Shown: piece after piece, positions 380 through 17,300 of the stretch
Position numbering within the stretch: the stretch's first letter is position 1
How the letters are laid out: each line of letters begins with the position of its first letter
From: Candidatus Micrarchaeota archaeon
GTDB taxonomy: Archaea > Iainarchaeota > Iainarchaeia > JAADDC01
DNA length: 21,018 bases
Assembly: GCA_027074515.1 (NCBI GenBank)
Contig: JALTCQ010000111.1
Coordinates: 1-21,018 of the forward strand
Direction: 5' to 3'
Position numbers and translations under genes: made by a program
Notes under the pieces: model-generated
Databases searched by the model: none
What the model saw: the letters and a program-made list of their open reading frames with translations, nothing else
What the model was told of the DNA's origin: nothing

Positions 380-2851
380 TCACTGAATTTTGTAGACCAT
401 CACGCCGTGGTGCGGCGCCACCCACGCGAGCCGGAAGTGCTCCATGGGCACGTCAAGAAGCATCCTCACAATCATGCTGTTGTTCATCCCAGGAGCAAGA
501 AGGATGAGCGTTCCACCCTTCTGGGATTCAGAAAGCTTGTACACTGCGTACTCCCTGTTACCAATGCGTATACGCGTGGCCTCATTAAACTCGCGGTAAT
601 ACTGCGGCTCAAACGGCGGTATGTCAGCCCATTGCTTGGCACTAAGTGTGGCAAGTGTGCTGCCGTTCTGCAGGCATATATAGTATGGTTTCCCCGTCAC
701 TATGGATTTGCCCACGCGCTCACAGTAGATCTTCCCTGCAGCGTAGTTTGCCAGGCGGGGGTCACGAAGATCACTGGTCTGCAGGGCGTAAAGCGCCAGA
801 GAATAACCCTGCCAGAGGAACTCCGGCTGGAAGATCACGTAGTTCATGTGGCGTTTGGAGGCAATAGCGTAGGCTGCGTTCTCGTCAGGGGCGAGGAAGA
901 ATTGCGCTGCCTCCACGTCTGCTTGGTAGTAGTAGTTCGTGTTATCTGTCATAACGCCACGGCCTGTGAAGAACGTGAGCCAGTGGCCTATACTCCACCA
1001 ATCGAGGAGATTCGCATCCTTTGGAGTGTTGGCGTCAATCCACTTGAACATGTCGATATAATCCTGCCCAGACGCTGCTGAGAATAGCGGTAGCCCCTTT
1101 GGTGCAAGGTTCATTTCCTGCGCCTCTGCAGACGTTAGGAGCATTGGAATCCGCGTGGCAGTGTGGTACACGGCCGTGGAAATCATTGAAATGGAAACGA
1201 GGGCAATAACTGCCATGATTGCTGCTCTCGCAGGCTTGGAAGACCCCCGCGTATAAAGATCGGCAAGAACAACCGCGCTAGCAATCGCTATGGGCAAACC
1301 TAGGTAGTAACAGAATTTTAACTGGTACCACGCGGCCCACCACGTTAGTGCAAGCCAGGCGAGCAAGAACAGAAAGTACCTATTCTTCTCGGAGCGGTAG
1401 AACATGAAAGGAATAGATGTTAGAACAATGAGGGCAAGTATCCCATACTTCGCGGGCCAGTTCGCGAAACCATACGTCTCCTCCCCAATAATTGCCGAGC
1501 CAATACCGTCCGTCTTCGGTTCGATGAAGCCCATATGTGGTTTGAGAACCGCGCTGTGTACGCCAACACCCTTACTCATCTCAGGGAAGAAGTTCCACTG
1601 AATGGTGTTGATAACGGGCTGGTACCAATTGTTTCCGTTTATTGGGCCTGAAAGCACGGCAAACAATAGAGGGACGTATATCACGCCAAGAAGCTTCCAA
1701 TCGATAATTCCACGCATGTCTTTACGCTTCTCAAAGAGGATTGTTGCTAATCCTCCCGCAAGGCCAGAGACCAGTATCATCAGGAGGGATCCGAGGAATA
1801 ACATGGAGAAGCTCGTGCTTTGGAACCCAATGCGGCGGGCAACTCCGTTAGAGTCCGTTATCTCCGTAATAAACCCGTTGTTCGCCGGGCCCATGTATGT
1901 GAGGATTGCGAAGACGACTGCACCCAGTGTCACGTATATGTATTTCCTCTCGTCCGTGTGGAGCCAAAGGATCGCCGCAGCAGTGGCCACACCGAAGAAA
2001 AATATCGCTATGTATGGCGTGGCAAGCGTGAAGATCGTAGTAGGAGTGAGCGCACCAGTAAGCGCGAGTGCATCTGCGGCCTCGGAGTACGCCAGCGTCT
2101 TTACGAATATGCCGGCGATAACGGCGAAGACACCGCCAAGGCCGATAACGGCCCAGTCCCACCATGAAACGTGATCAGGAACGTACCTGCGAATGTAGTC
2201 CAGAATAACGTATGCAAGGTAGAGTACAGTGAATACGAAGACTGTGTACGGAACGATGAAGAACCCGTCCCACGAGATCGCCTGGATAAGAAGCGTAATG
2301 CCAGCGAGAATCGTGTAGATCCAATACCACTTTCTATCCTTGCTGCGGTAGGCAAGATACGCAAAGATAAACGCAAGAGGTATGAAGAAAGAGGTCGCGT
2401 CATCTTCATAGAAGCCGGATAGCGTACGGTAGATGTATCCTGGGTTCGTGGCGGCGAAGAAGCCCGTAAGCAGCCCAAGCAAGGGCCCGCCGAGCACGTA
2501 GCCAAAGATCCCCATAATTAGAGATCCTGTCGCGCCGAAGCTAGCCGGGAGCCACTTAAACACCATCAGCATGTTCTGCTGGATGTAATGCGCGCCATAA
2601 ACGAGATGGTATACCCACGCAGGGAAATCCATGGATAGCTCCCAATCAATGGGGACTGGAGGGAAGCCACGGAACGCAACCGGATCGTATTTTGGCAGAT
2701 GCCCCATCTGGACAATGTACGATGCCATCCTTGCGAACCAATAAGAGTCAAAGCCAAAGATGTACGTATACTTCTCGAGATAGATGCGCGTTGCAAGCCC
2801 GAGAATGAATATCATTGTAAGCCCAAGAACCAAGCGCTCCCAGCTCTTCAT
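380..2851 (-). CDS. aglB: Oligosaccharyltransferase AglB (STT3 family), polytopic membrane protein, 823 aa
   Basis: The N-terminal two thirds contain many TM helices. STT3-like motifs appear in the expected order: FGFDSYWFAR (first acidic loop), GFYEDDATSFF, SWDGFF, then DWWSIGHWLTFFTGRGVMTDNTNYY aligning to WWDYGYxIxxxxxRxxxxDNNTW. A soluble C-terminal domain follows. Confidence 0.8.
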   Translation of the reverse strand: MKSWERLVLGLTMIFILGLATRIYLEKYTYIFGFDSYWFARMASYIVQMGHLPKYDPVAFRGFPPVPIDWELSMDFPAWVYHLVYGAHYIQQNMLMVFKWLPASFGATGSLIMGIFGYVLGGPLLGLLTGFFAATNPGYIYRTLSGFYEDDATSFFIPLAFIFAYLAYRSKDRKWYWIYTILAGITLLIQAISWDGFFIVPYTVFVFTVLYLAYVILDYIRRYVPDHVSWWDWAVIGLGGVFAVIAGIFVKTLAYSEAADALALTGALTPTTIFTLATPYIAIFFFGVATAAAILWLHTDERKYIYVTLGAVVFAILTYMGPANNGFITEITDSNGVARRIGFQSTSFSMLFLGSLLMILVSGLAGGLATILFEKRKDMRGIIDWKLLGVIYVPLLFAVLSGPINGNNWYQPVINTIQWNFFPEMSKGVGVHSAVLKPHMGFIEPKTDGIGSAIIGEETYGFANWPAKYGILALIVLTSIPFMFYRSEKNRYFLFLLAWLALTWWAAWYQLKFCYYLGLPIAIASAVVLADLYTRGSSKPARAAIMAVIALVSISMISTAVYHTATRIPMLLTSAEAQEMNLAPKGLPLFSAASGQDYIDMFKWIDANTPKDANLLDWWSIGHWLTFFTGRGVMTDNTNYYYQADVEAAQFFLAPDENAAYAIASKRHMNYVIFQPEFLWQGYSLALYALQTSDLRDPRLANYAAGKIYCERVGKSIVTGKPYYICLQNGSTLATLSAKQWADIPPFEPQYYREFNEATRIRIGNREYAVYKLSESQKGGTLILLAPGMNNSMIVRMLLDVPMEHFRLAWVAPHHGVMVYKIQ

Positions 2852-2872
2852 GGTATCATCGGGCCAGGAAGT

Positions 2873-2880
2873 GTTTTAAA
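2873..2880 (-). promoter_or_regulatory. TATA-like box for aglB (leaderless spacing)
   Basis: The minus strand reads ctttaaaa, centred about 26 nt upstream of the aglB ATG (2851-2849). Confidence 0.45.
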
Positions 2881-2968
2881 GTTCTGTATGAATATTGGTA
2901 TGTTCCTTGATCGGAGGCGCTGCGCACTGGCTATGCCAGGCGCACTGGGACGGGGTCCCAGCTGACGC

Positions 2969-2998
2969 GGGTCTGGTCTTCCGACCAGACACACAATG
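2969..2998 (+). repeat. 30-nt hairpin unit, copy A (upstream of tRNA-Leu CAG)
   Basis: Sequence gg GTCTGGTC ttcc GACCAGAC acacaatg: perfect 8-bp stem, 4-nt loop, conserved 3' tail cacaatg. Confidence 0.85.
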
Positions 2999-3003
2999 GT
3001 GGC

Positions 3004-3009
3004 ATAATT
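3004..3009 (+). promoter_or_regulatory. Possible TATA element for tRNA-Leu(CAG)
   Basis: ataatt is the only A/T-rich patch in the GC-rich leader and lies about 50 nt before tRNA position 1. It is identical in the second locus. If it is the promoter, the transcribed leader would be about 25 nt. Confidence 0.25.
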
Positions 3010-3056
3010 GGGGATCGTAGATCCCCAGTTAGCTCCGCGTCAACCGAGGATCGGTT

Positions 3057-3140
3057 GCGGGGGTGCCCGAGTGGCCAAAGGGGCCGGATTCAGGGTCCGG
3101 TGGCTTAGTGCCTTCCTGGGTTCGAATCCCAGCCCCCGCA
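3057..3140 (+). tRNA. tRNA-Leu (anticodon CAG), type II with long variable arm, no intron, CCA not encoded
   Basis: Manual cloverleaf: acceptor GCGGGGG/CCCCCGC + A73; D arm with GAGTGGCCAAAG loop; anticodon stem CCGGA/TCCGG with loop TT-CAG-GG; variable arm TGGCTTAGTGCCTTC; T arm CTGGG-TTCGAAT-CCCAG. Confidence 0.95.
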
Positions 3141-3167
3141 TCAGCCGATACGCGGCTGGCGAGCCGC

Positions 3168-3197
3168 GGGTCTGGTCTTCCGACCAGACGCACAATG
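3168..3197 (+). repeat. 30-nt hairpin unit, copy B (downstream of tRNA-Leu CAG)
   Basis: Sequence gg GTCTGGTC ttcc GACCAGAC gcacaatg, in direct repeat with copy A 199 nt upstream. The preceding cgc is also shared (cgcgggtctgg). Confidence 0.85.
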
Positions 3198-3243
3198 TGC
3201 TGCCATGCGCAGCACGCAGGGGTACAGGGGGCGCAGCCCCTTT

Positions 3244-3300
3244 GCCGATACGCGGCTGGCGATCCGCGAGGCCGGTTGCAAGCAACCGACCACACGAAGG
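3244..3300 (+). repeat. Diverged third trailer module (locus 1 only)
   Basis: gccgatacgcggctggcga at 3244-3262 repeats 3144-3162 exactly, 100 nt downstream. It is followed by a different hairpin (CGGTTG caag CAACCG) and a cgaccacacgaagg tail resembling cgaccagacgcacaatg. Confidence 0.5.
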
Positions 3301-3451
3301 GCCGTTGTATGTGGTCCGCAGGGGCGCTATTCGCCCACAGCTTCGTTATGTTCTACGACCTGCTGAGCGAAGCGAACGCAGGGCAAGCGCGGCCAGAGTA
3401 GCTGGCCATCTCGGCCCTGCACTACTTTTCCTGTGTTTCATGCAAGATTCC

Positions 3452-9166: not shown

Positions 9167-10066
9167 TCACTCCACCCCGTAGAGAGAAACGATCTCCTGC
9201 CAGTCCCTCTCGCGCTTGCGCTTCCAGAATGGGCCCTTGCGCACGGAGGGCCAGCCCTCCTCGTATGACATCCTGTCTTCGCTCACGTAGAATACGCCTG
9301 TGGGCACCCCCGCATCCGGGTTCAAATCGTAGTTCCACTCGCGTGCCCGCTTCAGCGCTGCCTCGAAGTTCCTTGGGTCGTGGCCATCCTCCTCCAAGCG
9401 GTATACGTGCTCGCGGAAGTACTGTGTGGTGTCGTGGAAGGAAACACAGGGCTGGAGCACTTCAACGAGGGAGAACCCCTTGTGTTTTATGGCTGCCTTG
9501 AGGGTTTCCTTAAGGTGTGCCACGTCGTAGGCGAACTCGCGTGCCACAAAGGTTGCTCCTGCCTCCAGTGTGAGTGCTATCGGGTTCAAGGGTTCCTCGA
9601 AGGTGCCCAATGGCGTGCTCTTGCCCTTGAAGCCGTGCTCCGTGGTCGCGGTTGCCTGCCCTGTGGTCAATGCGAAGACCTGGTTGTTGTGGAGGACCAC
9701 TGTGATGTCCGAGTTGTAGCGAGCCGCGTGGATGAGGTGTGAGATCCCTTCGTTGAGGAGACCTCCGTCACCACCATAGGCAATGACCTTTAGCTCAGGG
9801 TTGGCCAGCTTGATGCCCACGGCCGGAGGAATCGTTCTTCCGTGAAGCCCGTAGAAGCCATTGACGTTGATGTAGTCGTAGATCTTGGCACCACAGCCGA
9901 TGTCCGCAGTTATCACGAAGTCCTTGCGCTGGGCAAAGCCTTCATTTATTAGTTCAGCTATGGCCATCTTGCTGGCCGTGAGGATCCCAAAGTTACCACA
10001 TCCCGGGCACCAGGTGATTGGTGCCGGCGTGTTCAGGTCGTTTGGAGTCATGGCACACATTTTCAC
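9167..10066 (-). CDS. 2-oxoacid:ferredoxin oxidoreductase, beta (TPP-binding) subunit, 299 aa
   Basis: WCPGCGNFGIL, DIGCG, YGGDGGLLNEG (TPP-binding GDG motif). The start overlaps the alpha stop by 4 nt. Confidence 0.85.
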   Translation of the reverse strand: MKMCAMTPNDLNTPAPITWCPGCGNFGILTASKMAIAELINEGFAQRKDFVITADIGCGAKIYDYINVNGFYGLHGRTIPPAVGIKLANPELKVIAYGGDGGLLNEGISHLIHAARYNSDITVVLHNNQVFALTTGQATATTEHGFKGKSTPLGTFEEPLNPIALTLEAGATFVAREFAYDVAHLKETLKAAIKHKGFSLVEVLQPCVSFHDTTQYFREHVYRLEEDGHDPRNFEAALKRAREWNYDLNPDAGVPTGVFYVSEDRMSYEEGWPSVRKGPFWKRKRERDWQEIVSLYGVE

Positions 10067-11703
10067 AACCTCCTTATGATGTATTCAGGTGTTAGAGGCC
10101 TCGCGTCGTAGCGGAGGACCCTCTCATCGATCATGATGCCCGTCTTCTCCGCTATGATCTGGCCGAGGAGTCCTGTAACGTCGTTCTCCACGAGGACGAT
10201 CCGCTCGGCGTCCTTGACTGCATCCTTGAACTGATCCACAGGGAAGGGTTCAACATATGATACCTGAACGAACTTCCAACCCTTCAGCCGTTTTATTGCA
10301 TCCATGATCGCGCCCTTGGTGCTCCCCCATGAAACGATCACGTTGTTCCCTTCTCCGTAGACGCTCACGGGTTCCAGGCGTGCAATCTCCTCTGCCATGT
10401 ATTTAACCTTTCTGAAGCGCTTGTCGTTCATCTTTATGGCCCACTCGCCCTCTTCCCTCGTGTATCCGTACTCGTCGTGCTCGTAGGACGTTGCTCGGAC
10501 GGGAACGTCTGCCTGGCCAGGAACAGCGCGCGGAGAGACGCCAGTCTCCGTTATCTCGTAGCTCTTGTAGTCAGAAGGAACAACGTCGATGATGTTCCTG
10601 CTGGGATTCACGCGCGGGGAGAACTCATCGATGGTATACGTAGATTCTGCAAGGTGCTTGTCAGAGACGATGATGGAAAGCACCCTGTACTTGTATGCCA
10701 GGTAGAACGCCTCGATGGTCCTCTCAAACGCCTCCCTGGGGTCTCCAGGGGCGACGACCACCTTAGGATACTCCCCGTGACCTATGTTCACCGCCATCTT
10801 TAGGTCGCCCTGGCCAGTATAGGTCGGAATGCCCGTGGAGGGAGCATTCCTCATGGCAAGGTATGCGACCAAAGGTACTTCACTCATGCCCTGCATGCTC
10901 ATAGCTTCTCCCATGAGGGCAAAACCGCCGCCAGACGTCCCGATCATGGTCATGGCTCCGGCGTAGGACGCACCGAGGGCAGCGTTTGCCACGGCAATTT
11001 CGTTCTCCAGCTGTATGGCTTGGTAGTCATACTTCGTCTGGAGGGCAGCGAGGTAGTGGAGCACGGGCGTTGCTGGGGTCATGGGATATGCGATGTATAG
11101 ATCCAGGCCCGATGCAATGGCACCAAGAGCTACTGCCTGGCTCCCAGAGATGAAGTAGCGGGGCTTTCTTTCAGGGTGCTCGTCAATGGCATGCCCAGCG
11201 TCCACTGCGTCGTATCCTTTCCTTGCCGCTTTCACAGCTGCTTCATTGCCCTTCAGTTCCTCTCTAATCGTCTTCTCCAGGGACTCAAAGGGCATTCCAA
11301 AGTACTTCCACGCTGCGGCGATAAGTATGGTGTTCTCCATGATGCGTGGGACGTTGAGCTCCTTGATTATGGCATCCGTGTCCACTGAAATCTTTTTCTC
11401 CGCGTTGACGCGGTTTGGAGCGAAGATCACCGCGTTGTCCTTCATCTCTGCAGCATGCTTAACAACCGTGTCGTCGTTCAGCGCGATCACAATGTCATGA
11501 CCCTCAAACTCGTGGGACATTATGGGCTCGTCCGAAATCGCCAAAACGTTGAAGTTATGGCCCCCTCTTATGAGCGAGGGGTAGTCCCTGTAGTTAAAAA
11601 CGTAAAACCCCTCACGAACAAAGGCCTTTCCAAGAATCTCTGCGGCCTTGGCAATACCTTGGCCGGCCTCTCCTCCTATGAGTATCTGGCGGTACATGCT
11701 CAT
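10063..11703 (-). CDS. 2-oxoacid:ferredoxin oxidoreductase, alpha subunit (gamma-alpha fusion), 546 aa
   Basis: N-terminal gamma-type domain (ILIGGEAGQGIAKAAEILGKAF...RGGHNFNVLAISDEPI), followed by an alpha domain (FISGSQAVALGAIASGLDLYIAYPMTPATPVLHYLA). The start could instead be the third codon (ATG 11697), judging by TATA spacing. Confidence 0.85.
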   Translation of the reverse strand: MSMYRQILIGGEAGQGIAKAAEILGKAFVREGFYVFNYRDYPSLIRGGHNFNVLAISDEPIMSHEFEGHDIVIALNDDTVVKHAAEMKDNAVIFAPNRVNAEKKISVDTDAIIKELNVPRIMENTILIAAAWKYFGMPFESLEKTIREELKGNEAAVKAARKGYDAVDAGHAIDEHPERKPRYFISGSQAVALGAIASGLDLYIAYPMTPATPVLHYLAALQTKYDYQAIQLENEIAVANAALGASYAGAMTMIGTSGGGFALMGEAMSMQGMSEVPLVAYLAMRNAPSTGIPTYTGQGDLKMAVNIGHGEYPKVVVAPGDPREAFERTIEAFYLAYKYRVLSIIVSDKHLAESTYTIDEFSPRVNPSRNIIDVVPSDYKSYEITETGVSPRAVPGQADVPVRATSYEHDEYGYTREEGEWAIKMNDKRFRKVKYMAEEIARLEPVSVYGEGNNVIVSWGSTKGAIMDAIKRLKGWKFVQVSYVEPFPVDQFKDAVKDAERIVLVENDVTGLLGQIIAEKTGIMIDERVLRYDARPLTPEYIIRRL

Positions 11704-11717
11704 ATAACGCTGTTAAG

Positions 11718-11725
11718 GTTTAAAT
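11718..11725 (-). promoter_or_regulatory. TATA-like box for the oxidoreductase-gpmA operon
   Basis: The minus strand reads atttaaac, 19-26 nt upstream of the two candidate ATGs (11703, 11697). Confidence 0.35.
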
Positions 11726-11738
11726 GCGAGGTGGTGCG

Positions 11739-11746
11739 TTATAAAG
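11739..11746 (+). promoter_or_regulatory. TATA-like box for the orphan membrane protein (leaderless spacing)
   Basis: ttataaag is centred about 26 nt upstream of ATG 11767, in a divergent arrangement with the oxidoreductase promoter. Confidence 0.45.
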
Positions 11747-11766
11747 GGCGACTACATTTTTACATC

Positions 11767-12927
11767 ATGGCTGAGAACAACAGGCACTTCGACGTTCTCG
11801 GGTTGATATTGGTCCTCCTCGGCCTGGCATACGCTGGTTTCGCCATATACTGGGGTGCGAATACAGAATGGAGCCCGCACACGGATTATTACGTGCAGCA
11901 GATACTAAACCACAACGGAAAATACATCGCAACGTTCGAGACACAAGCCGGATCGGTAGGAATCGTGGATCTGAAGGGAAGGTATGCATACGTCAAGGTA
12001 GACAGTGATGGGCTGATTAACGCAGCATACCTGCTCCCGGAGATGAACCTTGTTGGAGTGGCGAGAAAAGACAGCTACACATACCTGTTATCAGTATCCG
12101 GAAAGCACGCGTCCATATTTCGAATAGGAAGCGCGGGAATGGATCGCTTCGACTATAACCTAGATCTCTGGACCTTGCGCAGCACATCACGTGTACAGAT
12201 TTCAGATTCACCAGTGTTTTACGTGCCAGGAACGTGGAGGAACCACTACGGCGTGCTACGGCTCGATTTTTCCGAAATAAACAACCCCGTGGCGCGAGTA
12301 TTCTACGATGTGCCGACATCGGATTTCATAAGAGATGGAGACAGCATATATTTCCAAAGTCCACAGGGCCGCCTTCACGAGCTAGCAATCCGCGGAAAAA
12401 CTGCCACGGATTACAGAATACTGATCACGGGATCCCCGCTATCCGCAAGGGATGGGATCGTTGCGGTACAGTCAGAAAAGGGAGTAGGTTACGTGGAGAT
12501 CAATGGGAATACCGCCAACGCCATAATCCTTGACGGCACGAAGGGAAATGCAGTAGTAACGGACTTCGGCACGTTCATATCGGATAACGGTAAGTTCTAC
12601 GCAGTTACGGGGCATGATAAAAACAGCCTGCGCGTGCTCGTGGCAGATTTCCCCTTCGAACCATACAGCTACATACAAGGCACCGCGGAGTACGAGATCC
12701 TCGGCACGTACGCAGCAGATCCAGCATACATCCACGGCACCTTCGACTTCCCCCACTGCCCCCAGAACTTCGTAGCGATAGATGCAAACGTGACGTTCAT
12801 AACTGCCCCTGTGGAGAGAGTTTCAAGCGTTAGAGGCGTGCTAACACCCATAAACTACGAGGGCAACACTTCTGTGGCTCTAACGCCTGCAAAGCTCAGC
12901 GTGGACTTCCCGTGTTACAGCCCATAG
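11767..12927 (+). CDS. Hypothetical membrane-anchored protein with a beta-rich ectodomain, 386 aa
   Basis: MAENNRHFDVLGLILVLLGLAYAGFAIYWG forms a single N-terminal TM/signal anchor. The remainder is rich in G/S/T/Y/V short-strand patterns. I recognise no family motif. ATG 11767 was chosen because upstream ORF sequence overlaps the oxidoreductase alpha gene and the TATA box fits. Confidence 0.6.
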   Translation: MAENNRHFDVLGLILVLLGLAYAGFAIYWGANTEWSPHTDYYVQQILNHNGKYIATFETQAGSVGIVDLKGRYAYVKVDSDGLINAAYLLPEMNLVGVARKDSYTYLLSVSGKHASIFRIGSAGMDRFDYNLDLWTLRSTSRVQISDSPVFYVPGTWRNHYGVLRLDFSEINNPVARVFYDVPTSDFIRDGDSIYFQSPQGRLHELAIRGKTATDYRILITGSPLSARDGIVAVQSEKGVGYVEINGNTANAIILDGTKGNAVVTDFGTFISDNGKFYAVTGHDKNSLRVLVADFPFEPYSYIQGTAEYEILGTYAADPAYIHGTFDFPHCPQNFVAIDANVTFITAPVERVSSVRGVLTPINYEGNTSVALTPAKLSVDFPCYSP

Positions 12928-15037: not shown

Positions 15038-16864
15038 TTATATCTTGACTATCCGCACTGGCACTGTCTTGAACGCGGGAATCTTTGTATCCGGATCGAG
15101 ATCCAGTGATGTTAAAACGTTTACGGGGACGTCATGAGAGTGGAAGGTCGTGGCCACTGCACCCTCCGGCATGGTCTCTGAGGCCTGAACGGAAATTTCA
15201 ACGGCTCCGACAGGAGATTCAAGACGCACCACGTCCCCGTCCTTCAACGCCTCACGTTCCATATCCTTGGGGTTCATCCAGAGAACGTTCTTCGGTGCCA
15301 TCGCCCGGAGCCGATCAGAGGTCATCGTCAGGTCGCCTGTGTTGAATTGAGACATTCTCCTGGCGGTAAAAAGCGTGTATGGGTATCCTGGGTGCTCAAC
15401 AACTCGTGGATTCAGCGGACAGAATCGCTTCTTACGTACGCCCTTCTCCGCAAAGACGTCTTCGCCAGAATAAACGAGCTCAGGGTCTATGTGCATGTAT
15501 CCGTCCACAGTCGTGGTGATTTCATAAAACACATCCTTGGGACTCCGGTACTTCCAGTCTTCCCCCATCTGCCTTGCCAGATCTTGCAAGAACGCCCATT
15601 CCTGCCTCGCCTCGCCAGGGGGAGCAACGACACGCCTCACGTATCGAACCCTCCTCTCCCCGATGGTCACGGTGCCCTCACGCTCGTAAAGCAGGGGCGT
15701 CGGGAGAACCACATCCGCAAATTCAGTGGTATCGTTGAAGTAAGGCGTGGCCTGGACAACGAACATGCGCTCAAGGTTCCTCCAGACGAGGCGCAGGTGC
15801 GGCATGGACCGAGCGGGGTTGAATATGCTCGTGAAAAAGAAGTCCACTGGCTTCGTGGTGAGGAACTCAGTGAGGGCTAGCCCGTATTTCGGTGCGATTC
15901 CAACGTCGCCAGCTCCCTGTATGTTGATCTTCCCTCTCTCCGTGATGATCTTCCCGTTCTTGAGCAGGGCGATGCTCGTTAAAGCCTTCACGGCGTCCGT
16001 CCCGTGGTACGTCTGCGTGTACTTCATCCCGTGCATCACACCAATGCGCTCAGCGGAGTAAATCGCTTCCGCAAGCTCCACGATCCTCTCCTTTGGTACA
16101 CCGGCAATCTGGGAAACGGTCTCCGCATCGAAGGGCGCCACGGAATGCTTCAACTCCCCAAAGCCCTCTATATCGGAGCGCACGCCTTTTTCATAAATCA
16201 AATAATGCAGGATCCCCATGACAACGTAGATCATTCGTCCAGGCTTCGTGATAACCTTGTAATCCGCGAACTTTCCCGTTTCATTCTCCCACGTGTTTAT
16301 GCAGGCCAGTTTCAGGCCTTTGGATCTTGCAGCGACGATTTTCGAGAAAACGGTGGGATAGTTGCTCGCGGGGTTCGTCCCAACGACAAGCAAAAGATCC
16401 AAGGAGTAAATATCGTTTTCGTAGTCAGGAGAGGCGGGAACGCCGAGCATATCGTTATACGCCTTGACTGTGGGGGCGTGGCAGAGGCGCGCGCACGAAT
16501 CCACGTTGTCAGAACCGATAACCTCGCGGGCAAACTTCTGGATGATGTAGTTATCCTCGTTTGTGATCTCTCCACTGCCTGCCCACCCCGTCCGTTCGGG
16601 AGCTGTGTTTTCAAGCCGATCTTGAATAAGATCTAAAGCGTACTCCCAAGAAACTCGCGAAAATTCACCGTCAGCCTCGCGGACGAGGGGTTCCATGACC
16701 CTTTTGGGCTGGAGTGTGTGGATCGAAAGCCCCTTTACGCACGGCTTGCCCTCCGAAACAGGATCGTCAGGATCTGGGAGGATGTTCACGATTTTATTAT
16801 CATCCACAACGTACCGCAGCCGACAGCCCGCACCGCAGAAGATACAGGTAGATTTGACGATCAT
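15038..16864 (-). CDS. Molybdopterin oxidoreductase, formate-dehydrogenase-alpha-like (Cys type), 608 aa
   Basis: N-terminal 4Fe-4S motif CIFCGAGC...C(VKG), active-site-like SCARLCHAP, and a C-terminal MopB dinucleotide-binding domain (VWMNPKDMEREALKDGDVVRLESPVGAV). The real start is ATG 16864 (MIVKSTC). The first 87 codons of the 695-aa track ORF run through the tRNA. Confidence 0.8.
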   Translation of the reverse strand: MIVKSTCIFCGAGCRLRYVVDDNKIVNILPDPDDPVSEGKPCVKGLSIHTLQPKRVMEPLVREADGEFSRVSWEYALDLIQDRLENTAPERTGWAGSGEITNEDNYIIQKFAREVIGSDNVDSCARLCHAPTVKAYNDMLGVPASPDYENDIYSLDLLLVVGTNPASNYPTVFSKIVAARSKGLKLACINTWENETGKFADYKVITKPGRMIYVVMGILHYLIYEKGVRSDIEGFGELKHSVAPFDAETVSQIAGVPKERIVELAEAIYSAERIGVMHGMKYTQTYHGTDAVKALTSIALLKNGKIITERGKINIQGAGDVGIAPKYGLALTEFLTTKPVDFFFTSIFNPARSMPHLRLVWRNLERMFVVQATPYFNDTTEFADVVLPTPLLYEREGTVTIGERRVRYVRRVVAPPGEARQEWAFLQDLARQMGEDWKYRSPKDVFYEITTTVDGYMHIDPELVYSGEDVFAEKGVRKKRFCPLNPRVVEHPGYPYTLFTARRMSQFNTGDLTMTSDRLRAMAPKNVLWMNPKDMEREALKDGDVVRLESPVGAVEISVQASETMPEGAVATTFHSHDVPVNVLTSLDLDPDTKIPAFKTVPVRIVKI

Positions 16865-16883
16865 GATCTCAAAACGCGCCAGC

Positions 16884-16893
16884 ATAATAAAAA
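16884..16893 (-). promoter_or_regulatory. TATA box for the FdhA-like gene (leaderless spacing)
   Basis: The minus strand reads tttttattat, centred about 26 nt upstream of ATG 16864. Confidence 0.5.
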
Positions 16894-16990
16894 GAAGGTG
16901 GTGCCATTGTAACCAGATTTCCGTGGATACTAACCGCAAACGTTGACGTGAAGCAACCACATATGCCCCTGCGTGCTGCGCATGGCAGCA

Positions 16991-17020
16991 CATTGTGCGT
17001 CTGGTCGGAAGACCAGACCC
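16991..17020 (-). repeat. 30-nt hairpin unit, copy D (downstream of tRNA-Leu CAA)
   Basis: The minus strand reads gg GTCTGGTC ttcc GACCAGAC gcacaatg, identical to copy B. Confidence 0.85.
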
Positions 17021-17047
17021 GCGGCTCGCTGGCCGCGTATCGGCTGA

Positions 17048-17131
17048 TGCGGGGGCGGGGATTCGAACCCCGGAAGGCACTAAGCCAGCGGATCTTGAGT
17101 CCGCCCCCTTTGGCCGCTCGGGCACCCCCGC
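17048..17131 (-). tRNA. tRNA-Leu (anticodon CAA), type II, no intron, CCA not encoded
   Basis: Reverse complement: GCGGGGGTGCCCGAGCGGCCAAAGGGGGCGGACTCAAGATCCGCTGGCTTAGTGCCTTCCGGGGTTCGAATCCCCGCCCCCGCA. Anticodon stem GCGGA/TCCGC with loop CT-CAA-GA; long variable arm; T arm CGGGG-TTCGAAT-CCCCG. Confidence 0.95.
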
Positions 17132-17189
17132 AACCGATCCTCGGTTGACGCGGAGCTAACTGGGGATCCACGATCCCCAATTATGCCCC

Positions 17190-17219
17190 CATTGTGCGTC
17201 TGGTCGGAAGACCAGACCC
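17190..17219 (-). repeat. 30-nt hairpin unit, copy C (upstream of tRNA-Leu CAA)
   Basis: The minus strand reads gg GTCTGGTC ttcc GACCAGAC gcacaatg, 199 nt from copy D. Confidence 0.85.
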
Positions 17220-17300
17220 TCGTCAGCGCCGGCCGATGTTCGGCCGAGCGTCAACCGATGTAGCTGCCAAGGCCTGCGCGTAATACCAATGCAAGGGAAG

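Follow-up and report, generated by a model that had tools for sequence, protein, structure and literature searches.

Covarying hairpin modules flank two tRNA-Leu genes in a Candidatus Micrarchaeota contig

Introduction

The locus raises the question of why two tRNA-Leu genes with different anticodons lie in flanks that seem more alike than the genes themselves. The window, which is the whole stretch of 21,018 nt analysed here, contains tRNA-Leu(CAG) at 3056-3142 on the + strand and tRNA-Leu(CAA) at 17046-17132 on the - strand as called by ARAGORN. The tRNA-Leu(CAG) locus scores 52.2 bits with the Rfam tRNA model RF00005 (threshold 29). A sequence-only reading of the window had described a near-identical, end-to-end repeat of both loci and had attributed the likeness of the flanks either to direct selection or to gene conversion.

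Results and Discussion

Differences between the two loci

Alignment confirms the repeat as an inverted pair with arms at 2961-3231 (+) and 16957-17227 (-), which are 271 nt long, ungapped and 93% complementary. The homology stops at 3222 in locus 1, with 4 further differences up to 3231. The repeat is far above chance, with four copies of a 21-nt hairpin core in the window where 0 are expected. Locus 2, including its shared leader, is identical base for base in the independent ENA assembly L048. Between the two 271-bp arms lie 13.7 kb of housekeeping genes.

An independent recount reproduces the earlier difference counts: 4/96 in the leader (2968, 2991, 3000, 3019), 8/85 in the tRNA body (3072, 3084, 3089, 3093, 3095, 3100, 3117, 3131) and 2/81 in the trailer (3157, 3158). 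The tRNA differences do include anticodon position 36 and two compensatory pair swaps, which are 27-43 C-G to G-C and a T-stem U-A to G-C. The flank changes at 3019, 3157 and 3158 are in loop and closing-pair positions, as had been described.

The same counts had been taken as a sign that the flanks evolve more slowly than the tRNA, which would fit an old tRNA-Leu leader and trailer element in cis that is directly selected. Per site the flanks do differ less than the tRNA, and hairpins B and C of the leader (see below) are conserved in the related locus L004. However, the contrast of 8/85 in the tRNA with 6/177 in the flanks is marginal and not significant alone (Fisher p=0.07). Five of the eight tRNA differences (32, 36, 38 and the T-stem pair) are isoacceptor signatures common to orthologues, namely CAG in L003 and L049 and CAA in L006. 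When these positions are removed the contrast vanishes, with equal rates of 3/80 in the tRNA and 6/177 in the flanks and an overall divergence of ~3.4%. The idea of conserved flanks specific to tRNA-Leu also fails, since the trailers are absent at all three tRNA-Leu genes read in the close relatives (L003, L004, L049 and L051). The tRNA-Leu(CAA) of L006-L008 has none of the modules. An old, slowly evolving cis element is therefore very improbable and largely refuted by the relatives examined.

Plain recent duplication of the whole tRNA-Leu unit, followed by an anticodon switch and leaving functionless flanks, could account for the ~3.4% divergence outside the signature positions. To arrive at exactly the CAA-type positions 32, 36, 38 and T-stem pair of L006, five changes would have to have occurred in parallel. 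The tRNA-Leu(CAA) of the window has 32C, 36A, 38A and the T-stem G-C in common with L006, and the tRNA-Leu(CAG) differs by 1 nt from its L003 and L049 orthologues. Relatives share both locations, the CAA gene near FEN1 and the CAG gene upstream of TrpRS; since tRNA-Leu(CAA) is found near FEN1 in L006-L008 as well, the CAA locus is old. In addition, the modules flank other tRNAs and covary. Synteny and the shared signature positions contradict plain duplication, to which we give hardly any weight. The outcome named in the sequence-only reading as counting against its proposal, flanks that are only a recent duplication in this genome, was half borne out: orthologous sites are not conserved, but the modules recur at other tRNAs, and the repeat is therefore not merely a local duplication.

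The tRNA-Leu bodies are old paralogues that are older than the young flanks. A trailer copy at tRNA-Arg in L052 has clearly diverged further than the two Leu trailers have from one another, and it carries compensatory changes; therefore, the identity of the Leu loci is specific to this pair and not the result of genome-wide homogenisation. The gene-conversion alternative raised earlier fits this pattern, with old differences around the anticodon kept apart while the flanks grew alike.

Anatomy of the two loci

All features of locus 1 are on the + strand. The nearest archaeal TATA-like box upstream is TTTTAAAG at 2874-2881, and a transcription start there would give a leader of ~150 nt. Related loci also have this TTTAAA-type box, which precedes tRNA-Ser, tRNA-Pro and tRNA-Trp by ~25-50 nt and is likewise found ahead of the TrpRS gene. 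The distal leader (2910-2961) consists of a degenerate 5' box, ATCGGAGGCGCT, at 2910-2921, hairpin 1 at 2921-2944 and hairpin 2 at 2945-2961. It is not common to locus 2 and is orthologous to 6442-6493 of L004. In that comparison hairpin 1 has two pairs changed on both sides and none broken, and the differences in hairpin 2 are confined to the loop.

The first core module copy (2961-3003) reads GCTGACGCGG, then GTCTGGTC-ttcc-GACCAGAC, then ACACAATGG. It matches the covariance model with 55.5 bits (E=3.7e-10) and forms direct repeat D4 with 3165-3197. Hairpin B (3002-3033) has 14 bp, GC-A-UAAUUGGGGAUC gua GAUCCCCAGUUA-GC, with a U.G pair on the tRNA-sense strand. In the consensus fold of the two window copies and L004 only the loop varies (GTA, GTG, GCA), with an invariant stem. 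The 5' arm contains GGCATAATT, a sequence that L052 has in the promoter region of tRNA-Arg. This motif could be a proximal promoter that leaves most of the leader untranscribed, which would count against the transcribed leaders proposed below. Hairpin C (3041-3057, CAACCGA gga TCGGTTG) ends in a G that is nucleotide 1 of the tRNA. It is preserved in L004 by a two-sided change of A-U to G-C, and a related hairpin (AACCG ggata CGGTT) is located immediately 5' of tRNA-Leu(CAG) in both L003 and L004.

The tRNA-Leu(CAG) itself extends from G1 to A73 at 3057-3140 (ARAGORN, Rfam tRNA), and CCA is not encoded. It is followed by the trailer box TCA-GCCGATACGCGGCTGGCGAGCCGCG (3141-3168), which includes hairpin D (CGCGGCT ggcg AGCCGCG, 3151-3168). 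The box is repeated at 3244-3268 and also occurs after tRNA-Ser(CGA) in L002 and L036. The copies of hairpin D contain mismatches and no covariation. The second core module copy (3160-3202) has the same class I hairpin as the first, followed by GCACAATG, and gives a covariance-model match of 60.9 bits (E=2e-11). Hairpin E (3198-3222) is TGCTGC catgc GCAGCA followed by CGCAGGGG, where the stretch common to locus 2 ends. The order of parts here is repeated in the tRNA-Arg trailer of L052.

A trailer segment found only at locus 1 (3227-3304) is repeat family D1. It contains a hairpin GGGGGC gca GCCCCU (3227-3241), the second trailer box (3244-3268) and a class III core module at 3260-3304, GGCCGGTTG caag CAACCGACC then ACACGAA, with a covariance-model score of 40.3 bits. 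The L052 copy of the 3227-3241 hairpin has a compensatory closing pair, C-G to U-A. A regex scan gave two further trailer hairpins within 3359-3407. The hairpin at 3359-3382, CCTGC-TGAGCGAAGCGAAC-GCAGG, is also present in L052, and the hairpin at 3391-3407, GGCCAGAGTAGCTGGCC, resembles the one immediately upstream of tRNA-Leu(CAA) in L006. A weak CCCxGCA repeat is seen at 3134-3140 and 3414-3420. A small ORF from the ATG of ACAATG was considered and rejected; it is not conserved between the loci and the locus 2 version enters the oxidoreductase frame by chance.

Locus 2 is on the - strand. Its distal leader (17230-17261) has a 5' box, CATCGGTTGACGCT, at 17261-17247 and a hairpin, CGGCCGA aca TCGGCCG, at 17246-17230. 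Other copies of the 5' box CCGCCAYATCGGYYGACGCT are present in L004, L053 and, in two places, L052, and a one-base variant, CTGCCATATCGGTTGACGCT, is located downstream of tRNA-Pro in L001; all copies found are in tRNA flanks. The shared leader (17132-17227) comprises a core module at 17185-17227 (53.2 bits), hairpin B at 17155-17186 and hairpin C at 17131-17147. The tRNA-Leu(CAA), at 17048-17131, is followed by the shared trailer (16966-17047), with the trailer box and hairpin D at 17020-17044, a core module at 16986-17028 (60.9 bits) and hairpin E at 16974-16990.

Distribution of the modules

The recurrent unit consists of an optional 5' box (CCGCCAYATCGGYYGACGCU), ..CGCG-R, a hairpin of 7-9 bp and a 3' box, RCACAAU. 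The hairpin is variable in sequence and its pairing is retained. The hairpin with RCACAATG is found on both sides of each tRNA-Leu in the window, and a third variant is the one at 3260-3304. A covariance model of the unit (R1) gave 15 matches when both strands of 215,588 nt of related DNA were searched. All 15 are in flanks of tRNA-Leu, -Ser, -Pro or -Arg and all 15 are co-oriented with the tRNA, in a sample that is small, with copies at ~7 tRNA loci of which some are orthologous to one another. In the MAG CAYVHT01 the modules are located downstream of tRNA-Pro(GGG) and tRNA-Ser(CGA). L052, which derives from the same metagenome as the window, has them downstream of tRNA-Arg(CCG), L053 has them on either side of tRNA-Ser, and L004 has them in the leader of tRNA-Leu(CAG). 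Thus, other tRNAs do carry the modules, a point that the sequence-only reading had proposed to check, and a leader or trailer element specific to tRNA-Leu was not borne out. The modules occupy either the interval from the nearest TATA-like box to the tRNA or that from the tRNA to the next T-tract or promoter.

A hairpin scan of public genomes matched only the MAG CAYVHT01. The trailer-box scan of metagenomes returned 35 loci; 34 are chance matches to coding DNA of high-GC bacteria, and the remaining one, L036, duplicates L002. Two window ORFs looked up as exact protein sequences gave no match. Rfam at its standard threshold likewise matched only the tRNA. Permissive Rfam searches (E up to 5 or 10) of window 2850-3450, L052 8400-8910 and L004 6380-6900 gave no family for the flanks, in agreement with the earlier remark that no described element of this kind was known. 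The scans of those regions returned only tRNA, sub-threshold noise and mascRNA-menRNA (E=0.0006), the last wholly on the tRNA-Arg gene.

The distribution bears on the possibility that the modules are a selfish or neutral mosaic of palindromic DNA repeats (REP/BIME, MITE or PATE type) with no host role. Recognition of the hairpins as single-stranded DNA by a recombinase or transposase would then preserve them, and copies would accumulate in tRNA flanks, where insertions are harmless because RNase P and tRNase Z trim them. Several observations are consistent with this. The modules vary in presence at orthologous sites of close relatives. A 33-nt core shows 100% identity between genomes with a ~19% difference in the neighbouring GT2 proteins, and the mosaic is rearranged between L003 and L004, which are strains with identical TrpRS. 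The hairpin at 3359-3382 is inverted relative to the tRNA in L052, which also counts against a role in a tRNA transcript. Contigs of the relatives break at module sites, as expected for multi-copy repeats. REP-like palindromes have been widely reported in archaea (PMC12306157). On the other hand, none of the R1 matches lies away from a tRNA in 215 kb, and their uniform orientation cannot be explained by a replication-strand bias since the two window loci are oppositely oriented. The in-place compensatory evolution at an orthologous leader is unexpected for dead copies. Terminal inverted repeats and target-site duplications are absent, no transposase or integrase gene was found in ten scanned window proteins or in the called genes of the retrieved loci, and three scans of viral contigs for the modules gave no match. 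A selfish or neutral repeat is the main alternative to the model proposed below, though on balance unlikely.

Structural constraint

The flank hairpins appear to be under structural constraint. In the recurrent hairpin 7/8 stem pairs are changed on both sides and none has a one-sided change, 93.8% of paired cells are standard pairs, and the covariation score is reached by 0/500 shuffles, with no slid control coming close. When the window is compared with the orthologous L004 leader, two-sided changes are seen at 5 pairs and at 1 in hairpin C, with 0 broken within hairpins, so that every stem substitution is compensatory. The modules fold with z-scores of -5.8 to -6.3. These results support the structural part of the earlier proposal that constraint acts at the level of RNA structure.

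The strand on which the constraint acts is less evident. The core hairpins contain no G.U pairs, and a recurrent C.A mismatch at the third base pair corresponds to G.U on the opposite strand. The summed MFE is -1025 kcal/mol for sense and -1040 kcal/mol for antisense, which gives no preference for the tRNA-sense strand, but both strand tests are uninformative because CA-rich linkers make the antisense strand G/U-rich. Taken at face value, the missing sense-strand asymmetry and the mismatch count against an RNA-level role, and a conserved mismatch without G.U pairs recalls the imperfect palindromes read by HUH enzymes in selfish repeats. The G+C content is 0.60-0.75 in the arrays and 0.69 in the tRNA, against 0.38-0.49 in other intergenic DNA.

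Long-range pairing of leader and trailer is weakly above shuffled controls for tRNA-Leu(CAG) (z=-2.1, -18 kcal/mol). The leader segment GAUCGGUU can pair with AGCCGAU of the trailer, which would lengthen the acceptor stem; the fold has one 3-nt bulge (A73-U-C), then a 7-bp helix and no second bulge. A general leader-trailer clamp was rejected, since the pairing is not significant for Leu(CAA), Ser, Pro, Arg and His, and non-cognate GC-rich trailers pair equally well. The bulge-helix-bulge motif scan matched too permissively and no canonical motif was identified. A predicted pairing of the 5' box with GCGUCAACCGA in locus 2 was also rejected; the partner changes in L004 track hairpin C and leave 2/11 mismatches. 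The weak leader-trailer pairing and the lack of covariation in hairpin D both count against an RNA-level role.

Comparison with known systems

The modules share several features with REP/BIME elements. Both are short, G+C-rich imperfect palindromes in transcribed intergenic DNA that combine with other small motifs into variable mosaics, vary in presence between strains and keep their stems by compensatory change; extragenic imperfect palindromes combined into mosaics are what was found here. In contrast to REP, the copies found so far in ~215 kb are confined to tRNA flanks and co-oriented, and they have conserved CGCGR and RCACAAU boxes where REP has a GTAG-type tetranucleotide. The RAYT (IS200-like) transposase of REP/BIME systems was not found in the scanned window proteins or the retrieved loci.

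Mobile G+C-rich hairpins are also known from organelles, such as the GC clusters of yeast mitochondria and the double-hairpin elements of chytrid mtDNA. These are likewise small, strain-variable spacer hairpins that are often beside tRNA genes, but they belong to another host domain and have no sequence relationship with the modules. Integron attC sites resemble the modules in having a conserved base and flanks, a variable upper stem, a conserved mismatch and structure conserved over sequence. They were rejected since there are no R''/R' sites (RYYYAAC / GTTRRRY), CGCGR and RCACAAU are not complementary, and the loci contain no integrase gene or cassette ORFs. A MITE was rejected because neither the 271-nt unit nor the 43-nt module has inverted termini or a duplicated target around it, the sole hint being the weak CCCxGCA repeat noted above. 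An integration site was considered for a 280-nt insertion relative to L003, which is bounded by CCCCCGCA and GGCCCTGCA; the repeat is too weak for an att site.

In Nanoarchaeum equitans a tRNA and a C/D box sRNA are made as a dicistronic precursor that is cut by RNase Z (PMC3491384). The modules fit a tRNA-linked sRNA co-transcript in position and orientation; as in N. equitans and the plant tRNA-snoRNA genes, a structured element is located immediately downstream of the tRNA on the same strand, and tRNase Z cleavage would therefore define the 5' end of the module. The first trailer module begins 3-9 nt past the discriminator base in all five module-bearing trailers read (both window tRNA-Leu, tRNA-Ser and tRNA-Pro of CAYVHT01 and tRNA-Arg of L052). 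This precedent raises the possibility that the modules are independent small non-coding RNA genes, guide-like or protein-binding, which are transcribed from the tRNA promoter and processed by tRNase Z and RNase P. The conserved single-stranded boxes around a variable hairpin and a G+C content as high as in stable RNAs of thermophiles would agree with it. However, the modules also lie upstream and in tandem, have no C/D boxes, H/ACA pseudouridylation pocket or K-turn and gave no Rfam match. Complementarity to a target was not detected; the sole partner of the 5' box is the tRNA-Leu leader, and this pairing is lost in L004. Close relatives also lack the modules. We consider independent sRNA genes improbable.

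Individual RNA classes were also rejected. The ACA after the hairpin recalls archaeal H/ACA sRNA, but the stem is an uninterrupted 7-9 bp with a loop of 3-11 nt and no pocket; the sole Rfam H/ACA signal is SNORA17 on the opposite strand with 16.6 bits (threshold 29). A CUGA within GCUGACG recalls C/D box sRNA, but the arrays contain no UGAUGA-type box. For a hammerhead, locus 2 has CUGACGA-G-helix-GCACAA and locus 1 has CUGACGC, but GAAA is absent and there is no Rfam match. The processing helices of rRNA operon leaders and trailers (PMC11404451) and the bulge-helix-bulge structures of archaeal pre-rRNA and pre-tRNA are similar in that long, structured, G+C-rich flanks surround a stable RNA gene. 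They differ in that the flanks here form mostly local hairpins, with pairing weakly above shuffles and no canonical bulge-helix-bulge.

Proposed model

Each tRNA-Leu gene lies within a mosaic of GC-rich modules from a lineage-specific, tRNA-associated repeat family. We infer that these structure-constrained modules are transcribed with the pre-tRNA and form its long, structured leader and trailer. Transcription and action as RNA are suggested by the position of the modules, their tRNA-like orientation and their tRNA-like G+C content. One possibility is that the modules act in cis to stabilise, organise or terminate the precursor; another is that they become stable hairpin RNAs once RNase P and tRNase Z have excised the tRNA. 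The same mosaic would be present at both Leu loci because a tract of ~270 bp was recently copied between them, probably by ectopic gene conversion anchored on the tRNA-Leu homology, while selection kept the isoacceptor-specific nucleotides distinct. This account has about an even chance of being correct. The presence and absence of the modules among close relatives argues against it, since it implies that they are dispensable.

A more specific form, which is doubtful, is that the modules are an undescribed class of tRNA-coupled structured RNA, made of interchangeable hairpin cassettes with conserved single-stranded boxes, transcribed in long pre-tRNA leaders and trailers and spread between tRNA loci by recombination in an uncultured, probably thermophilic archaeal clade. 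RNase P and tRNase Z would then release stable RNAs that act on a trans factor; alternatively, the cassettes may be built-in elements that protect, fold or insulate the precursor.

Implications

Flanks that seem better conserved than the gene between them can simply be younger than the gene. Archaeal tRNA genes usually have short leaders. If the modules act as RNA, the pre-tRNAs of this lineage would carry 150-400 nt of selected structure, which would point either to an unrecognised layer of precursor handling (thermal protection, termination or insulation) or to non-coding RNAs whose biogenesis is coupled to tRNA processing. If selfish, the modules would be a rare archaeal repeat family confined to tRNA transcription units and a likely driver of the rearrangements seen here, with three different tRNA-Leu genes at one syntenic site and inverted repeats on either side of 13.7 kb of housekeeping genes.

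Paired tRNA-Leu loci

The window has two tRNA-Leu genes, tRNA-Leu(CAG) (3056-3142, +) and tRNA-Leu(CAA) (17046-17132, -), each held by one arm of a gapless inverted repeat (2961-3231 and 16957-17227) which is 271 nt long and 93% complementary. The sequence-only reading had described two isoacceptors in a near-identical repeat, and our own count reproduces its numbers: the two loci differ at 4 of 96 nt in the leader, 8 of 85 in the tRNA and 2 of 81 in the trailer. Among the eight tRNA substitutions are anticodon position 36 and two compensatory pairs. The repeat is real, and the second locus occurs base for base in L048, an independent ENA assembly. Between the inverted 271-bp copies lie 13.7 kb of housekeeping genes, with TrpRS at one end and the oxidoreductase at the other, and homologous recombination between the copies would invert this segment. 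The arrangement in the related locus L049, where tRNA-Leu(CAG) is beside the oxidoreductase, could be a product of such an inversion.

Module family

The flanks are mosaics of modules and not one element. A 33-nt stretch, CGCGG-GTCTGGTCttccGACCAGAC-RCACAATG, is present on both sides of each tRNA-Leu, and tRNA-Leu(CAG) is followed by two copies of the trailer box GCCGATACGCGGCTGGCGAKCCGCG, with a different hairpin after the second. The common plan is an optional 5' box CCGCCAYATCGGYYGACGCT, then ..CGCG-R, a 7-9 bp hairpin of one of three sequence classes, and RCACAAU. A Leu-specific element does not hold, since the same modules follow tRNA-Pro(GGG) and tRNA-Ser(CGA) in the MAG CAYVHT01, flank tRNA-Ser(CGA) on both sides in L053 and follow tRNA-Arg(CCG) in L052, a scaffold of the window's own metagenome. 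L052 has about 110 nt with the same order of parts as the window trailer, and in L004 the modules are part of a hairpin array of 385 nt that precedes tRNA-Leu(CAG).

A covariance model built from 13 module copies was searched against both strands of 215,588 nt of related loci, a small amount of lineage DNA, and gave 15 matches, all in tRNA flanks and all co-oriented with the tRNA. It had no match in the more distant relatives L006-L008 and L046-L047. The flanks have no Rfam match and a literature search found no comparable repeat family, in agreement with the earlier statement that no described element fits. The modules make up a tRNA-associated family of mosaic hairpin repeats that is specific to this lineage. 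When the whole window was scanned at the Rfam gathering threshold nothing was returned, as the fast filters lost both tRNA-Leu genes; in a scan of 600 nt the tRNA model scored 52 bits (threshold 29).

The contigs of five independent assemblies stop inside a tRNA gene (L044 1-60, L045 1-30, L049 1, L052 1-25) or 3 nt upstream of one (L051 1-3). Such breaks are expected from multi-copy tRNA flanks, so arrays would be systematically under-assembled in MAGs.

Structural constraint

The proposal that the flanks are constrained at the level of structure is supported, and by better evidence than six within-genome substitutions. Pairs form in 93.8% of the cells of the 13-copy alignment, and seven of eight pairs are changed on both sides with none changed on one side; none of 500 shuffles and no slid control came near the observed value. 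Between the window and the orthologous L004 leader, five pairs and one more in hairpin C (3041-3057), whose last G is nucleotide 1 of the tRNA, are changed on both sides and no pair is broken within these hairpins, while the loops differ freely. The flanks also fold far better than shuffles (z-scores -5.8 to -6.3), and the G+C content of the arrays (0.60-0.75) is like that of the tRNA (0.69) and not that of other intergenic DNA in the window (0.38-0.49).

Age of the flanks

The flanks do have fewer differences than the tRNA (6/177 vs 8/85), as had been claimed, but the contrast is weak as a statistic (Fisher p=0.07). Five of the eight tRNA differences are isoacceptor signatures (positions 32, 36 and 38 and a T-stem pair), and when these are removed the rates are the same (3/80 vs 6/177). 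The CAG states are common to tRNA-Leu(CAG) of L003, L004 and L049, and the CAA states to tRNA-Leu(CAA) of L006. L006-L008 likewise have tRNA-Leu(CAA) near FEN1, and L003 and L004 likewise have tRNA-Leu(CAG) upstream of TrpRS, so both genes are in old positions. The trailers are absent at tRNA-Leu in L003, L004, L049 and L051, which argues against an old, slowly evolving Leu element. The two tRNA bodies are therefore paralogues of old date, and the mosaic common to both loci is recent.

Gene conversion had been offered as an alternative to direct selection. The tRNA states are indeed older than the shared flanks, and the copying step itself is probable: a single tract of about 270 bp would have been copied between the two Leu loci, with selection keeping the anticodon-arm and T-stem states. 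Several modules follow one another collinearly in each flank, so that transfer of one tract is a more economical explanation than parallel insertions. The L052 trailer copy is clearly more diverged than the two window Leu trailers are from each other; the near-identity is therefore confined to the Leu pair and not due to genome-wide homogenisation.

Gene surroundings

The window is archaeal and encodes AglB/STT3, FEN1, archaeal PheRS alpha and beta, TrpRS, SerRS, pyruvate:ferredoxin oxidoreductase and a molybdopterin oxidoreductase. Both tRNA-Leu genes are in divergent intergenic regions, each upstream of a same-strand gene (TrpRS; oxidoreductase). The nearest named relatives of the TrpRS (Thermofilum, Infirmifilum) are about 58% identical; closer matches are MAGs, among them DQUH01 (GTDB genus SZUA-1452), and the TrpRS of L004 is 92% identical.

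The site upstream of the molybdopterin oxidoreductase holds tRNA-Leu(CAA) in the window (16957-17227), CAG in L049 and L050 (both 1-125) and UAA in L051 (1-141), with oxidoreductase identities to the window of 82% (L049, L050) and 72% (L051). In this clade, tRNA-Leu genes look like hot spots of rearrangement or conversion. The mechanical ORF of the oxidoreductase (15038-17125, -) reaches across the trailer into tRNA-Leu(CAA). In the database the protein (P0121) begins MLARFEIM, and a TTTTTATTA box immediately precedes that ATG; the box position suggests that the true start is the MIVKSTC methionine, on a leaderless transcript.

A 490-aa ORF (11455-12927, +) without a Pfam match is located between the oxidoreductase alpha subunit and thymidylate kinase; its position is conserved in L003, L004 and L049, where its length is about 390 aa. 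Upstream of tRNA-Leu(CAG) and the TrpRS gene, L003 has an intron-containing tRNA (9527-9675) missed by ARAGORN, which on hand parsing resembles a tRNA-Trp(CCA) whose intron follows position 37, with a second intron probable. L004, with identical TrpRS, carries its hairpin array there instead. In L006 (3621-3640 and 3519-3538, minus strand), L007 and L008, a second copy of the 20 nt that open tRNA-Leu(CAA), GCGGGGGTGCCCGAGCGGAC, lies some 100 nt before the gene; this is a partial duplication or else an unusual intron in the D-loop.

Possible RNA role or selfish repeat

In leaders the arrays always lie downstream of a TTTAAA-type box and before the tRNA; in trailers they follow the tRNA and precede the next T-tract or promoter. 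Combined with co-orientation with the tRNA, a G+C content like that of the tRNA and compensatory evolution at an orthologous site, this placement favours transcription of the modules in long pre-tRNA leaders and trailers with a role as RNA, a reading to which we give an even chance. Release of stable RNA by tRNase Z has archaeal precedent (PMC3491384). The arrays lack a ribozyme core, C/D boxes and an H/ACA architecture, no canonical bulge-helix-bulge motif was recognised in them, and support for a leader-trailer clamp is weak.

A separate hairpin family has the conserved loop GAGCG-NAA-GCGAG (L002 4960-4988 (-), L003 9739-9767, L004 6705-6733), with a related loop at window 3359-3382. Its two-pair GC mini-stem, closing GNRA tetraloop and flanking tandem G.A/A.G pairs look like a K-loop, and it could be a binding site for L7Ae-type proteins.

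Other features fit a REP/BIME-like selfish repeat, which we consider possible but less likely than the RNA role; REP-like palindromes are widely reported in archaea (PMC12306157). Folding is equal on the sense and antisense strands, and the core hairpins have no G.U pairs but carry a recurrent C.A mismatch that would pair as G.U on the opposite strand. Modules are gained and lost among close relatives: L003 and L004 have identical TrpRS, yet are wholly different upstream of the hairpin-plus-RCACA junction. Genomes with about 19% difference in the neighbouring proteins share an identical 33-nt core, and L052 has one hairpin type in inverted orientation. Window 3359-3382 and L052 8648-8671 carry the same 24-nt hairpin, CCTGCTGAGCGAAGCGAACGCAGG, which in L052 has the opposite orientation with respect to its tRNA neighbour; either the loop or the entire element may have flipped between the stem arms. 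A role as RNA and a selfish origin are compatible and not exclusive readings of this family.
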